From Gammaproteobacteria bacterium (GTDB taxonomy: Bacteria > Pseudomonadota > Gammaproteobacteria > JAURND01), in assembly GCA_047601185.1 (NCBI GenBank), contig JASGJS010000001.1, positions 1,217,305 to 1,281,304 on the forward strand: a stretch of DNA of 64,000 bases. Direction: 5' to 3'. Of this stretch, positions 40,701 through 52,700 are shown one piece after another (position 1 is the first letter of the stretch; every line of letters begins with the position of its first letter). The position numbers are program-made.

Positions 40701-43700
40701 TTCTGCCTGCCACACGCAAATTGATTTCAAATTAACCGAATACAAAGTAGAAATTCGTAGCCATGGCACTGACGCCGTGGTTTATGTAGAATTAAAACTC
40801 GTCAAGAATCAAGCATACTCATTAGGATGTGGAACATCTCCTGATATTGTTCAAGCTTCTATCGAAGCCTTTGAAGAAGCGTATAATGGATTCGTTTGAT
40901 GTTTCTAAGAGGATTTGAACTGGCGCGCTTTTACCTTCTCCCCATAGGAGATTTGAGGTGATGAGCTACTTACTTCTCCCTCTGTGGGAAATTTGAAATG
41001 GCGAGCTGTTGCCTTCTCCCCCTGTGGGAGAAGGTGGCCGAATAGGCCGGATGAGGGGTAACAAAAGAAACTTTCAGGAGGATTTAGATGTCATTCAATA
41101 AATACAGTGCTCACATCACGCAACCGCGCTCCCAAGGCGCGTCACAAGCCATGCTGCACGCCATAGGCCTCACAGAAAAAGATTTAAACAAGCCACAAAT
41201 CGGCATTGCCAGCATGTGGTACGAAGGTAACCCTTGCAACATGCATCTGCTCGAGTTAGCTGATGTCGTTAAAGCTGGTGTCAACGCACAAGGATTAATA
41301 GGCTTACGTTTTAATACGATTGGCGTCAGCGATGGCATTTCGATGGGCACCACAGGCATGTGTTATTCTTTGCAATCTCGCGATCTCATCGCAGATTCGA
41401 TTGAAACCGTCATGGGTGCGCAATGGTATGATGCTTTAATTGCCGTGCCGGGTTGTGACAAAAACATGCCTGGTTGCTTAATGGCCATGGGGCGGTTAAA
41501 TCGCCCCAGTTTAATGGTGTATGGCGGCACGATTAAAGCGGGTCATTTAAATGGCGAAACCATCGATATTGTATCGGCTTTTCAAAGTTACGGTGAATAT
41601 ATCGCGGGAAAAATTGATGACGCAGAACGCAAAGCCATTATTCAACATGCGTGTCCCGGCGCAGGTGCTTGTGGCGGGATGTATACCGCCAATACCATGG
41701 CCTGTTCAATTGAAGCATTAGGCATGAGTTTGCCTTATAGCTCGTCCAATCCTGCATTATCATTGGAGAAACAACAAGAATGCGCACAAGCAGGCGAAGC
41801 CATTAAAATATTATTGGAGCGTGATATTAAGCCCAAAGATATCATGACTAAAAAAGCCTTTGACAATGCGATTACACTCGTCATTGCGTTAGGCGGTTCG
41901 ACCAATGCGGTTTTGCATTTAATTGCGATGGCGCGCGCAGTTGATATTGATTTAACGCTAAAAGATTTTCAAGACATCAGCGCACGCACTCCATTATTAG
42001 CAGATTTCAAACCTTCTGGAAAATTTGAAATGGAAGATTTGCATCATTATGGCGGCACGCCAGCCGTGATGAAACTGCTATTAAACGCAGGTTATTTGCA
42101 TGGAGATTGTCTGACAGTGACCGGCAAAACTTTAGCAGAAAATTTAGAACCATTACCCGCATTAAGTGAAGGTCAGCCTATCATTCATCCTTTAGATCAT
42201 CCACTTAAAGCCAATGGTCATCTCCAAATATTATATGGCAACCTAGCACCTCGAGGCGCTGTCGCAAAAATTACCGGCAAAGAAGGCATGCGTTTTAGTG
42301 GTCCCGCCAAAGTGTTTGACTCAGAAGATGAGATGATTCATGCCTTGGAAGCCAAACAAATCCAAGCCGGTGACGTCATTATCATCCGTTACGTCGGACC
42401 TCAAGGCGGCCCCGGCATGCCAGAAATGCTAAAACCCACCTCAGCGATTATGGGTGCTGGATTAGGCAAAGACGTCGCTTTAATTACGGATGGACGTTTT
42501 TCAGGCGGCTCGCATGGTTTCATCGTCGGACACGTGTGTCCAGAAGCGCAAGTCGGAGGGCCCTTAGCCTTGGTGCAGGATGGAGATAAGATCACCATCG
42601 ACGCTGAACAAAATATTGTCACGTTGGATTTAACAGATGTAGAACTCGCTGAACGTCGTAAACAATGGGTGATGCCGCCCTATAAAGCAGATCGAGGCAC
42701 TTTATTTAAATATATTAAAAATGTAGCGCCGGCGGATTGTGGGTGTGTGACGGATGAGTGAGTTTTAACTCATCTTGGCTTCCTAATTGCACTTCATTTG
42801 TGAATCGGCGGTTGATTTTAGGACAAAAATATATGGCTAATCAACAGAGGATGGAGTCCGCAAGAACGTATGTCATACTTCTTTACAAGTGCAACATAAG
42901 GTCAGGTATACTGCTTCTGTTAAAGTCGCACAATTTAATTTCTGTTTAATAGATTTACGGTAGGTTTCTATTGTAGATTGTTTAACGCCTAATAGTTGCG
43001 CTGTTTGTTGAGCAGTTCTACCTTGCGCTGCCGCCAGGATACACCGTCGTTCTTGTGGCGCAAGCTTTTGATAATTATGAGAAAATTTGGATTTTTCTAG
43101 GGATTTAAGCTGAAGCTCTTGTATGACACATGACTCTCGATTCTCTTCAGGGCTTAAAAGGTTTTCAGACATTTCTTCGGGATTACTCATACTGACTTAC
43201 GCCTCTGTCGCATTAAATTTAATATTGCTATTATTGGGTAACGATATTTGAGGGGATAGGACCCCATTAAGTATTTTGACCATTATTTTAATCAAATATT
43301 GATTAAAATAATGTAGTCCAAACGCCCAATGTGCTATTAATTTTGATTTAAGGGGAGAAAATGGGGTCAAAACAACTGTCTAGGCATGGTCATCAGACCC
43401 CAGAGGCAAGAGGGTTAAGGGTTCGTTATGTGCGGGACACACTTTTAAGGTATTCACGACGAAAATTTGGGGATAAATATGACATACCTGCGCCCACGCT
43501 TCAAAATTGGGAAATCGGGAAATATGGGGGGCTAACTGAAAAGGGGGCCCTAAAATTGCTGAATGCCTTTGCCTCGGAAGGAATCCCTGTCACTTTAGAG
43601 TGGCTATTTTATGGGCATGGCTTAGAACCATCAGGCCCAATAGCTCCAACTTCATTAGTTCAACTTGATCAAAATATTACGCGTGAACTACAGTTTTTTC

Positions 43701-49700: not shown

Positions 49701-52700
49701 GTGAAATTCAGAAATTTAGCAGGTCTAACGCTCAGTCGCGGCTATCGGTCATTTTTAGACTCGTATCAGCCAGCACAAGGGTTTGTGATCACTAAAAATC
49801 AATTCGGAGAGCTAACTTATCCGCATGGGCGAATTTATTTTATTCCTTTTAGCGCGCTGCCTGAGCTATTTATGATGCTTTAAAAGTCATTATTCAATCT
49901 TTTAAATCAAAAGCTTGTATGGCGCCCCCTCATCCGCCTATCGGCACCTTCTCCCACAAAAAAGGGGAGAAGGCGCCACACCGAACCTTTAAGTGTTTCC
50001 TCTTAGTTCACTGCCATTGAAAGTAAAGGCCTCAGAAGCAAAAACTTCAAAAATGACTAAAGAACCCATTATTGCTATCCAGCATTCTTCAAGAAAACAA
50101 ATAAAAAAGGTATCCATTCAGCACAGCCTAAGAGAAGCTTGAGCTCAGAATAGGTAGGAGGCGTCGTCCTCGCAGGATGCGGGGATCCAGTCTGCAGGAA
50201 GCAAACTTTATATCCTTGTATTCTGGATCCCGGCATCCATGCCGGGACGACGCCTCTTGCTTAATTTAAGCTCAAGCTTCCCTTAGGACGTGCTGAATGG
50301 ATAATAAAAAAGTTGACATAATGGTTCCAATGTTTAATGATAATGATTCTCATTAACATTTAAGCAGGTGAAAAAAATGACCACAGAAGCCTTAGAACCT
50401 CAAAACCAACCTCACAAAGGGGATAAGTGGACAAACTTTAATACCGGCTTTCAGATGATATCCGGTACTGCTGGGGGTTTTTATTTGGTGGGTGATACCG
50501 TTGATTTGTTTGGTAATTTTCATCGTATGGCGCTGGGTCTTTCTTTACCAGCGATGATCATTGGTTTAACGGGCGCTATCTTTATAGCTTTGTGTGAGGC
50601 ATACAATCATCAACAGCTGAACACTTATCACCAAAAAGAAAATATAGAGGACATGAAAGCTGCGCAAAGCCCTGCAACTCAACAACCCTTACTCCCTGCA
50701 AAGGAAGAAGACACATCGGAATTGAGCAAATTACAAGGGGTCGCCTTATTTGGCTGCTTTATTGCGCACACAGTGGAATTTGCTGCACCGTTAATTTTTA
50801 TTTTTAATTTGACGTTTGCTGATCAGTTGCCACATTATACGCAAGTTCTTATCGTACTGCTGGTATTAGCCTGTGCAGCTTTAGCCTCAATAGCCGATGT
50901 AAGAACTGCTAAAACGGCAATAGAAGAATTAAATGCTCAATCTTTAAGCGTAACAAACCCTCCTGTTGCGGTATAAAGAATGCTGCAATTATTGAAAAAA
51001 ATCGAGCTCGTTGGAATTCTGATATGTCATTGGAATCAAATCATAAAGAAACAGTTTTAGTCGTTGCATTAGGCGGCGGTGGTGATTCTGTTACCGCACA
51101 TTTATTGGCTACGGATTGGATCGCGCGTGGTTTTGAGGCTTGTGTAGCGAGTCTTGCTTGGGAGCGTTTCGTAACGGATCCTCTGCCTGGACCACGTCAT
51201 TGTTCTGAATTATCTTGTTTAACTGAGATAACTAACACCGTTGGCGAAGTCACTGCGACCACTGCTTTTCCTGCCGGAATAAAGATTAATCAGGCTACCC
51301 TTGTACAATCATTCCCAAATATAAGGCATTTTATTCTAGATCCTTATGGTGGAGTTTCAGGACTCATTTCTGATTTAAGATATTTGTGTCATGTATTGAG
51401 TATATCCAAAATAATAGGCGTAGATGTTGGTGGAGATGTGCTGGCCAATCATCCGTTTCCATCCCTGAGGAGCCCTTTGGCGGATGCTATGTTAGTCGCT
51501 AGCATATACGCTATTGACCCAGATGCCAGTATTTACGTTTGTGGAATGGGTTTAGATGGAGAAATACCCATGGATTATCTAAATTTTAGTATTTCTGAAC
51601 ACTTACAATCCAATGATATTTCTGGGTTTTATACTGCTCCTTTAAATCTTGTTGAGAACTTGGTGCCATTAGTTAAAAAAAGGCTGATTCATACTGAAAC
51701 AACGGCGCTTTACCTTTATGCTCACCACGGAATGTATGGTAATGTACTCGTTCGTGATGCCGGATCAATTGTTCGCGTGGGTATAGAATCAACCATTGGC
51801 TTGATTTATTCAGCAAGAAATATTTGTGAAAAAATCAACCGATTGTCCCTACTGCTTATTGGCACTCGCAGTATTGAGGAAGCAAGTCATATTGTTAAAC
51901 AACAAGGTTTCCTTTGTGAGTTTTTTTATGAGAATGAATTATACAAAAAACATGAGCATAAATATTTACAATATAATGAAAAATTATCAATAGAGACCTT
52001 GTGCTTTTTTTTATCATCACTTAATAAAAATATTTCTTATGTCGCTGAGAGACATATTGCACATATGCTAAAAACTAGCGTACATTCCATACAGAATGTG
52101 TTAAGCAGTATCGGTGATCAAAGTAATATGTTTCCTCCATTTTTACGGGTTCATTCGCCCGAGTAATCCATGCTCTCTCTATTCATATTGGAAGTTCAGG
52201 AGAGGGGGCAAGCCGTATTTGACCAAGAATTGCTTGGCAGCTTTAATTTTTCAAGCAACACGTTGCGAAAGGATGCTCCAGTAGACGTGGTGGCCCCTGA
52301 CCAAAAACCCGTTACGCAAGTGCTGGTGTCACAATGACCGCCAAAGGTGAAAAATTCTTGATCATGCTTAATGGGGCAACTGCAAATGGCTTTAGTTGAA
52401 TCCATTGGATCAATTGTGCAAGGTGAATCTACGCAATTAGTCCAAGGTGTTCCTTTACTACAGGTCATGCTTTTTTTCGTAGAAAATTGCACGAAAGAGA
52501 AAGTTGAAACAATGTGCCGAACTTTAAAGTGATCTTGTGTTGGAGCACGTTGTTCACAGGCTTTATAGCCTACGCTATCGCCTTTCTCAACCACACAAGC
52601 ACAAATAGCATAGTTAGAATGCCTGGGATCAGGTATGCAGGGGGCAGATGTACAAAGCGCATATTCTTGGTTGCAAACGATGGGTATGGTTTGCATAGCT

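Follow-up and report, generated by a model that had tools for sequence, protein, structure and literature searches.

A conserved, predicted signalling cassette with an LqsR-family regulator, a SemiSWEET-fold permease and an unnamed protein family in an uncultured gammaproteobacterium

Which genes belong together in the AT-rich stretch that follows ilvD in the genome of an uncultured gammaproteobacterium (assembly GCA_047601185.1, contig JASGJS010000001.1, locus tags QM752_), and what could they do? The window, that is the whole stretch of DNA analysed, comprises 64,000 nt; the segment under study lies at 42873-49883, and all coordinates are window positions. A first-pass annotation had listed seven open reading frames (ORFs) in the segment and had proposed a self-contained signalling trio of histidine kinase, response regulator and orphan gene. 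All seven ORFs are present where it placed them, and Pfam and NCBIfam agree with its domain calls for the LuxR helix-turn-helix (HTH) protein, the PAS-PAS kinase, the PQ-loop protein, the DUF4143 ATPase, and the preceding ilvD. The trio proved too narrow a unit, as the PQ-loop, CI-like and LuxR-solo genes are part of the same conserved cassette. From gene content and order, the real unit is a conserved, predicted signalling cassette of six genes at 42873-48265, composed as follows:

47993-48265, minus strand: PQ-loop (SemiSWEET-fold) permease, 90 aa, three helices, first gene of the operon (Pfam PQ-loop)
46673-47944, minus strand: 423-aa protein of an unnamed family without a Pfam match, putative enzyme (the "orphan" of the first-pass annotation)
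45121-46689, minus strand: soluble PAS-PAS histidine kinase, 522 aa (Pfam PAS_4, PAS_9, HisKA and HATPase_c)
44114-45124, minus strand: LqsR-family response regulator, 336 aa (Pfam receiver domain and match to PDB 6sy9)
43361-44002, plus strand: CI-like regulator, 213 aa, with Xre-type HTH and degenerate S24-like C-terminal domain
42873-43190, minus strand: stand-alone LuxR/GerE HTH protein, 105 aa (Pfam GerE, E 2.6e-10)

The four minus-strand genes, read from 48265 to 44114, are packed like an operon in the order PQ-loop gene, 423-aa family gene, PAS kinase and LqsR-like regulator. A 48-nt gap separates the first two genes, followed by a 17-nt overlap and by a 4-nt overlap (ATGA) of the kinase stop with the regulator start. 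A scan found no terminator-like site between the four genes. The divergent pair of CI-like and LuxR-solo genes comes next, with the CI-like gene convergent with the regulator gene; between the starts of the pair lie 170 bp (43191-43360).

The same gene order was found on contigs whose genes include a close relative of either the regulator or the 423-aa protein. One of these loci (L006; loci are cited by number) possesses counterparts of all six window genes, with order and orientation unchanged. Its CI-like homologue of 216 aa, on the opposite strand, is 34% identical to the window protein (E 3e-38), and a 115-aa GerE solo in the position of the LuxR solo is 46% identical to the latter. Large parts of the cassette are repeated in L013, L022, L024, L026, L050, L060, and L072. 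The locus set was obtained by a pattern scan with the alignment of the 423-aa family against one genome per GTDB species, which yielded 65 loci; a scan of genome contigs with the single regulator protein gave no match. Six-frame ORFs of all loci were then searched with the window proteins, and counts were made over 57 non-redundant full-length genes of the 423-aa family. A kinase gene lies directly downstream of the family gene, on the same strand, in 51 out of 56 loci. The PQ-loop gene is found directly upstream in 38 out of 54 loci, and on either side in 41 out of 57. An LqsR-like regulator is located within 6 kb of the family gene in 13 out of 45 loci, a CI-like gene is present in eight out of 45, and a GerE-type gene in six out of 45. 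All-against-all clustering of the 57 non-redundant loci detected no other gene family common to more than about four loci, so the cassette travels as one unit between unrelated surroundings.

The core, consisting of the PQ-loop gene, the 423-aa family gene and the PAS kinase gene, is, as far as these sequences indicate, spread through the Legionellales; the CI-like and LuxR-solo genes belong to an extended version of the cassette that is present in the window. Cultured carriers include L. brunensis, L. shakespearei, L. lytica, L. bononiensis, L. moravica, and L. nautarum, as well as L. saoudiensis, L. drozanskii, L. maceachernii, L. maioricensis, L. fairfieldensis, and L. rowbothamii. The kinase at these cultured Legionella loci is either a PAS-PAS protein of 523 aa or a hybrid of 813 aa with REC and Hpt domains. 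Other carriers are metagenome-assembled genomes (MAGs) of Tatlockia, Coxiellaceae and Legionellales, and single MAGs labelled Burkholderiales, Thiotrichales, Verrucomicrobiae, Chlamydiae, and Myxococcales. Some genomes harbour two or three paralogous cassettes (L015, L045 and L057 are from one MAG). At L001/L002 (8070-16348) the cassette is duplicated in tandem; unit 1 consists of PQ-loop gene, kinase and regulator without the 423-aa family gene, unit 2 includes that gene, and a GerE-type response regulator follows the units. The kinase and regulator of unit 1 are the closest to those of the window. No paper describing the cassette was found in a literature search on PQ-loop/SemiSWEET proteins in connection with sensor kinases or Legionella; a survey of SemiSWEETs mentions PQ-loop proteins of Legionella, but not their linkage to the 423-aa family or a kinase (PMC5972207).

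What kind of circuit does the cassette encode? The response regulator gives the clearest indication. Along its full length it matches PDB 6sy9, the LqsR protein of L. pneumophila (phmmer E 1.1e-59, residues 6-335 against 26-355 of the chain), and BLASTP gave 34% identity over 334 columns (E 3e-65). Its motif LLVADYAMPG is aligned with VVVDYAMPG of 6sy9, which makes Asp104 the equivalent of the phospho-acceptor Asp108 of LqsR; the acidic pair D19/D20, T129, and K152 are also present. Because both the receiver Asp and the homology of the C-terminal output domain are found, the protein is assigned by homology to the LqsR family. The novel output domain of about 180 aa that had been proposed for it is ruled out by the LqsR match and belongs to this known type. 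Pfam detected no HTH domain in the regulator. Regulators of the LqsR family are described as lacking a DNA-binding domain and as having a C-terminal domain with a degenerate GGDEF-like fold, for which no cyclase activity was detected (PMC10653808). In most Proteobacteria the family sits with the synthase lqsA and the kinase lqsS, and in Ralstonia, Cupriavidus, and Hydrogenophaga it has moved beside the quorum-sensing genes phcBSRQ (PMC10653808). The window regulator adjoins neither lqsA/lqsS nor phcBSRQ.

Further LqsR-like genes were observed beyond the cassette. The window regulator has a paralogue in the same genome (P0003), and genes annotated as response regulators, 36.8% identical to it over residues 82-330, occur on near-identical plasmids of about 150 kb (H3-H9) from L. 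pneumophila, L. anisa, L. sainthelensi, and L. longbeachae. Nine out of 17 plasmid matches are predicted to be conjugative by PLSDB, a count not itemised per record.

The kinase possesses a HisKA domain at residues 285-312 with the motif SIAHEIRTPL, and a HATPase_c domain (Pfam, E 2.4e-21). Since its first PAS domain begins at residue 25, there is no room for a membrane segment and the protein is predicted to be soluble. Among NCBIfam models, the kinase core is matched best by the quorum-sensing kinase LuxN (2.7e-38), and the next model (7.7e-23) is 15 orders of magnitude behind. The H-box His, the HATPase_c domain and the overlapping regulator gene are all features of a two-component system, in which this kinase would be paired with the adjacent regulator.

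For the product of the first operon gene, the earlier description as a SemiSWEET-like PQ-loop protein holds at the level of the fold, but curated thresholds and pocket residues do not extend it to function. The protein scores 30.0 bits against Pfam PQ-loop (cut-off 22), and its family profile matches the SemiSWEET structures 4x5m, 4rng, and 4qnd with E-values of 9e-6 to 4e-4, about 1e-5 at best. It stays below the NCBIfam thresholds for SemiSWEET_2 (27.8 bits, threshold 80) and SemiSWEET_3 (22.8 bits, threshold 100). In SemiSWEET structures a Trp and an Asn form the sugar-binding pocket, and in the alignment with 4x5m these positions are occupied by Thr53 and Gly68, respectively. The permease has a SemiSWEET fold but probably a different substrate. 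Its identity to orthologues in L001 and L004 is 73-81%, and at 81% it is the most conserved component of the cassette.

The central gene of the cassette encodes the 423-aa protein, which gave no match in Pfam, NCBIfam, PHROGs, PADLOC or the PDB sequences. It had been regarded as an orphan, a status that family searches rule out. A word-indexed search found 21 relatives, and an exhaustive search with a profile, run over 1.84 billion representatives, yielded 1339 family members at E<=1e-3, and 484 at E<=1e-30; the count of 1339 refers to clusters at 50% identity and is a lower bound. Ten diverse members had no significant Pfam match and no informative name, one being labelled "hypothetical protein". 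An AlphaFold2 (AF2) model built with the family alignment is globular and confident, with a predicted local distance difference test (pLDDT) of 86.3 and a predicted template modelling score (pTM) of 0.86. Long helices form the N-terminal third, the C-terminal part is alpha/beta, and the C-terminal tail is disordered. Foldseek searches with this model returned nothing below E 0.6 in the PDB, and no match in the viral structures of BFVD. Conservation was evaluated over 149 members with a median identity of 27% to the window protein. D56, C64, R67, Q190, R229, H326, Q328, and H386 are at least 99% invariant, and Q65 is 98% conserved, a pattern that may represent the signature of an active site or cofactor site. 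Between the window and L004 the 423-aa protein is 44% identical, whereas its partners reach 81% (permease), 65% (kinase) and 64%; it diverges faster than the partners. In L004/L012 (7019-8424), the closest orthologous cassette, the N-terminal region of about 34 residues of the family gene lies in another frame, which is either a frameshifted pseudogene or an assembly error.

Members of the family were also observed in other surroundings. In L066 (2906-9555) and L068 (4239-8973), from a Verrucomicrobiae and a Chlamydiae MAG, the family gene lies amid three or four paralogues of about 400-430 aa. These paralogues form a second family without a Pfam match that is common to both loci, with up to 46% identity between the phyla.

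Does the conservation pattern point to an enzyme? The 423-aa protein might instead be a non-enzymatic accessory sensor or adaptor that binds the soluble kinase and may tether it to the PQ-loop protein as a membrane co-sensor, comparable to UhpC with UhpB or H-NOX with its kinase. Consistent with such a role, the gene is located directly upstream of the kinase gene and overlaps it (by 17 nt in the window and 4 nt in L004), the kinase follows directly in the 51 out of 56 loci mentioned above and lacks a membrane segment, and long helices form the N-terminal third of the model. Nevertheless, invariant Asp, Cys, His, Arg and Gln residues at a median identity of 27% are more to be expected at a catalytic or cofactor-binding site than at an interface, members of the family occur without any kinase in L066, L068, and L009, and unit 1 of L001 has a kinase and a regulator without the 423-aa family gene. 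We consider the adaptor role unlikely.

Far less probable still is a chance juxtaposition of unrelated and recently acquired AT-rich genes, with the 423-aa gene as a translocated effector or degenerate ORF. The very low GC content of this gene and of the PQ-loop gene, the disordered C-terminal tail, the effector-rich lineages of the carriers and the RefSeq label "hypothetical protein" on a homologue would be in agreement with it. The neighbourhood census contradicts it, as gene order and orientation recur in dozens of genomes with unrelated flanks. Moreover, the ORFs are intact, with overlaps that suggest translational coupling, the AF2 model is confident, and the family is large, under purifying selection and marked by invariant residues.

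The two remaining cassette genes encode predicted regulators. The CI-like protein had been described as a CI/LexA-like HTH-S24 repressor divergent from the LuxR gene; its HTH, its CI-like architecture and the divergent arrangement were confirmed, but the S24 catalytic dyad and the Pfam domain are absent. No Pfam match was obtained for this protein, including Peptidase_S24. It matches the transcriptional repressor family phrog_4 of PHROGs (E 1e-4), and its family profile matches Xre-type HTH structures in the PDB, namely Atu1735 (6e-7), the P22 C2 repressor (0.003), and the 434 repressor. The C-terminal pattern is xDxxMxP...GDxVxG, with DNCMSP in place of GDSMxP. At the position of the S24 Ser the window protein has Cys and 12 homologues have mostly Gly, Ala, Thr or Arg; at the position of the general-base Lys, Arg or no residue is found and nothing is conserved among the homologues. 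Because these catalytic residues are not conserved, the protein is probably not self-cleaving, and a self-cleaving LexA-like repressor was rejected as a description of it. In L006, L013, L024, and L026 a homologue is found at the equivalent place and in the equivalent orientation, and in L022, L050, L060, and L072 one is near the cassette. Similarly, GerE-type genes flank the cassette in L001, L021, L022, L045, L050, and L072.

Taken as a whole, the locus is explained, tentatively, as a mobile signalling cassette of six genes with a small-molecule, self-signal mechanism, which is our leading explanation. The 423-aa protein would be a cytosolic enzyme that makes or converts a small hydrophilic molecule, and it would probably be thiol-dependent because Cys, His, Asp, Arg and Gln residues are invariant. 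The permease, with its sugar pocket remodelled, could act as an equilibrative facilitator that passes the molecule over the inner membrane, and the cytosolic PAS domains of the kinase would read its intracellular level. The kinase would then phosphorylate Asp104 of the LqsR-type regulator. As the regulator has no DNA-binding domain, it would work via partner proteins, and the obvious ones to consider are the CI-like and LuxR-solo regulators encoded next to it. Overall, such a circuit would be a loop resembling quorum sensing, laid out like agrBDCA or phcBSRQ-phcX.

Is the molecule made by the cell itself, or taken up? A self-produced signal is favoured over an imported compound, with some hesitation, because LqsR-family regulators are otherwise tied to quorum-sensing clusters of synthase plus kinase, the kinase core is LuxN-like, and known autoinduction operons likewise run from a membrane protein through a signal-related gene to kinase and regulator. 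The same preference is drawn from L001, where a unit without the 423-aa family gene lies beside a complete unit, from the genomes that hold two or three diverged cassettes, and from the faster divergence of the 423-aa protein relative to its partners.

Alternatively, the genes may form an operon for uptake and sensing, or for detoxification. The permease would import an environmental or host compound, or export a toxic one, the enzyme would convert it, and the kinase would sense substrate or product and tune the operon and other genes via the regulator, with no self-signal. This is a possible explanation, which we rate below the self-signal. Bacterial SemiSWEET genes are common in metabolic operons (PMC5972207), the kinase is cytosolic with PAS domains, and the permease is the best conserved component across cassettes. 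The carriers are furthermore amoeba-associated (Legionella, Tatlockia, Coxiellaceae, and Chlamydiae), and the IcmF-like, Sel1-repeat and U-box proteins of the window genome make the sensing of host metabolites plausible. However, the operon would contain one enzyme only and no catabolic genes recur in the neighbourhoods, the sugar-binding Trp/Asn pair is lost, units without the 423-aa family gene exist (L001), and the LqsR family and LuxN-like kinase core point to cell-cell signalling.

Several observations weigh against the self-signal mechanism and are gathered here. The argument for an enzyme is the conservation pattern of the 423-aa family, and no chemistry can be assigned to the protein because its fold has no match. 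A soluble PAS kinase, a permease and an enzyme would be equally typical of a substrate-induced operon for uptake, utilisation or detoxification. The family gene occurs without a kinase or permease neighbour in the Verrucomicrobiae MAG (L066) and the Chlamydiae MAG (L068). In cultured Legionella the core has no adjacent LqsR-like regulator, so the link to LqsR is not universal. The output step through the CI-like and LuxR-solo proteins is suggested by gene position. The 81% conservation of the permease, finally, argues against a diversification of signals between cassettes.

How did the cassette arrive behind ilvD? The elements bearing on this question, and others in the surroundings, are the following:

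41088-42761, plus strand: ilvD (Pfam and NCBIfam)
48266-48602, no strand: divergent intergenic region, presumed promoter of the PQ-loop operon
48387-48638, minus strand: 83-aa ORF with TTG start, overlapping the start of the DUF4143 gene, no family match
48603-49883, plus strand: AAA_14/DUF4143 ATPase (Pfam AAA_14 and DUF4143)
50111-50303, no strand: palindromic element, about 190 nt long, at the right edge of the segment, the terminal inverted repeat (TIR) of the first-pass annotation
52808-54808, minus strand: hybrid PAS-HisKA-HATPase-REC-Hpt kinase, 3 kb beyond the segment (Pfam)

The segment had been described as looking horizontally acquired. It is accessory and, in evolutionary terms, mobile, and its position is not conserved; a discrete insertion at 42873-49883 is not demonstrated, as no insertion boundaries were found. 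In the two nearest relatives of ilvD (87% and 80% identity; L077 and L078) synteny with the window ends exactly at the ilvD stop codon, and ilvE (Aminotran_4) follows ilvD by 9-15 nt in both. Since ilvE is absent anywhere in the 64-kb window, the ilv operon is truncated where the cassette begins. One of these two relatives, GCA_035546635, carries the cassette at two other loci; in this genome a shikimate/aromatic amino-acid cluster follows ilvE. The cassette is thus absent from this site in the relatives; however, they share only ilvB-ilvD (35912-42758) with the window, and synteny is broken upstream of ilvB too. Synteny with the nearest relative is confined to the ilv block (GC content 0.41-0.46), which may itself be the transplanted piece.

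At other loci the cassette is flanked by HipBA and Gp49/HTH toxin-antitoxin genes, an integrase, a resolvase, KorA, and transposases. On the 35-kb plasmid pTUM19329-2 of Legionella antarctica (NZ_AP022841.1, L079) the core lies beside an IS91 transposase and an integrase. This plasmid encodes a 72-aa hypothetical protein, the 423-aa family gene WP_173238696.1 (RefSeq "hypothetical protein"), an 808-aa PAS kinase, a hypothetical protein, and csrA. In the segment of the window itself Pfam detected no integrase. No flanking direct repeats around the segment were found in the window, and there is no tRNA at the segment borders, the only tRNA of the window being located at 16679-16754 (Rfam).

A shift to AT-rich composition after ilvD had also been noted. 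It does begin at the 3' end of ilvD, at the stop codon, but it is extreme in two genes only and continues past 49883. The GC content of the whole window is 0.415, and the mean over the window genes is 0.418 (standard deviation 0.047). All seven segment genes are below this mean (0.387, 0.388, 0.353, 0.363, 0.259, 0.297, and 0.371); only two of them are outliers, the 423-aa gene at 0.259 (z = -3.3) and the PQ-loop gene at 0.297 (z = -2.6), and the lowest values in 300-nt windows (0.23-0.29) are reached at about 46.0-46.4 kb and 46.7-48.2 kb. Both genes have a GC content below that of their flanks in L001, L004, and L010 as well, and because this low GC recurs in related loci it is weak evidence of recent transfer. 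Genes at 50-64 kb are likewise under the mean (0.35-0.43), and the low-GC, non-syntenic region runs to the end of the window.

The first-pass annotation had placed the end of the segment at repeats at 49924-50307. An inverted repeat is indeed present there, while low GC content and lack of synteny run on beyond it. The arms of the palindromic element (50111-50174 and 50240-50303) comprise 64 nt each, are 83% complementary, and lie 65 nt apart. A GC-rich hairpin, CCTTCTCCC...GGGAGAAGG, was found at 49921-49977 (about 49945-49973). Both are single copies in the window, and both are located between the DUF4143 gene and the next gene. In the presumed promoter region at 48266-48602 a -35/-10-like site was found on the minus strand (48375-48347), with site counts in the region at chance level; promoter and terminator scans performed no better than on shuffled sequence. 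The 83-aa ORF with TTG start is probably not a gene.

The DUF4143 ATPase was rejected as a cassette member, as it has no consistent association in related loci: a DUF4143 gene is nearby only in L007 and L008, and these are barely similar (6e-5). It matches the profile PDLC04789 of the PADLOC candidate defence system PDC-S01 over positions 4-371 of 375 (E 1.2e-91) and is regarded as a candidate defence gene, unrelated to the cassette that it adjoins. Two more AAA_14/DUF4143 genes, covered by the Pfam scan only, are found just upstream of ilvB on the minus strand (33038-34261 and 34355-35494), so that three such genes bracket the ilv operon.

Beyond the segment, the hybrid kinase at 52808-54808 matches the hybrid kinases encoded directly before or after PQ-loop and 423-aa family genes in cultured Legionella, with E-values of 1e-172 to 1e-202 (L019, L020, L035, L052, L033, and L041), and its PAS domain is 44% identical to the first PAS domain of the cassette kinase. 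LqsS and LqsT both feed LqsR, and by analogy the hybrid kinase may feed the same pathway as the cassette. The functional neighbourhood may extend to about 55.7 kb. Two other minus-strand genes were observed in this region. A 189-aa Cys-rich protein with an N-terminal signal-like segment (52196-52765) matches the product of the gene that immediately precedes the 423-aa family gene in L009 (9e-40), and a 285-aa protein without a Pfam match (54889-55746) matches a protein encoded at locus L020 of L. shakespearei (5e-59). Genes for an IcmF-like protein, for several proteins with Sel1 repeats, and for an 848-aa U-box and Sel1 protein resembling a eukaryotic E3 ligase are also located in the window (19031-22132, 27452-28717, 32092-33024, and 61041-63587). 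Such genes are hallmarks of an intracellular, amoeba-associated, Legionellales-like lifestyle of the uncultured host.

What is new in this locus is the conserved upstream module around a protein of unknown fold; what is known is the type of circuit, two-component and LqsR-like. In Legionella, LqsR acts as a central switch of both life cycle and virulence. To our knowledge, LqsR-type regulators were previously known only beside Lqs and Phc clusters. They are now linked to a different, conserved upstream module with a central protein that matches no Pfam family and no solved structure. The function of the 423-aa family, the cargo of a non-sugar SemiSWEET, and the action of an LqsR-type regulator via CI-like and LuxR-solo partners are made testable, and genetic work could begin in one of about twelve cultured Legionella species. 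A self-produced molecule would mean that intracellular pathogens and symbionts use a signalling chemistry new for bacteria. In its widest form, which we consider rather doubtful, the proposal is that the core forms a class of cell-cell signalling system based on small molecules that has so far gone unrecognised in Legionellales and other bacteria associated with amoebae, with a synthase of new fold, a hydrophilic autoinducer, a SemiSWEET-type facilitator, and a cytosolic PAS kinase. One branch would feed LqsR-type regulators and would be the third independent wiring of the LqsR family to a quorum-sensing module.

How does the cassette compare with known systems? At the level of single components, the CI-like protein resembles lambda CI and LexA in combining an N-terminal Xre/CI-type HTH with an S24-like C-terminal pattern, but differs in having neither a Peptidase_S24 match nor the conserved Ser-Lys dyad. 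The permease shares with the SemiSWEET sugar uniporters (4x5m, 4rng, 4qnd, and 4qnc) the single PQ-loop/MtN3 repeat of about 90 aa with three helices, whereas its operon partners are signalling genes and not genes of carbohydrate metabolism. By analogy, agrBDCA has an operon of the same logic, in which a membrane protein comes first and is followed by a signal-related gene, a kinase and a regulator. In agr, a membrane kinase senses a ribosomal peptide as the signal. The two systems are unrelated in sequence; the cassette has a cytosolic kinase, and its middle gene codes for a globular protein of 423 aa.

Among the systems close to the cassette is the Lqs system (lqsA-lqsR-hdeD-lqsS), with which it has in common a full-length homologue of LqsR with the conserved acceptor Asp and the same non-DNA-binding C-terminal domain, a sensor kinase gene beside the regulator gene, and the lineage Legionellales. 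Unlike in Lqs, the segment at 42873-49883 encodes neither a pyridoxal phosphate (PLP)-dependent synthase of the LqsA/CqsA type nor a membrane kinase of the LqsS/CqsS type with six helices, and because these types are absent the cassette is not an Lqs system. Instead, the window kinase is soluble with two PAS domains, and upstream of it lie the PQ-loop permease and the protein of unknown fold. The Phc system differs in its S-adenosylmethionine (SAM)-dependent methyltransferase synthase PhcB and its membrane kinases PhcS and PhcR, none of which is present in the cassette. Nonetheless, PhcX, encoded beside phcBSRQ in Ralstonia and Cupriavidus (PMC10653808), provides the precedent for an LqsR-type regulator that has its place outside lqs, beside another module of synthase plus kinase.

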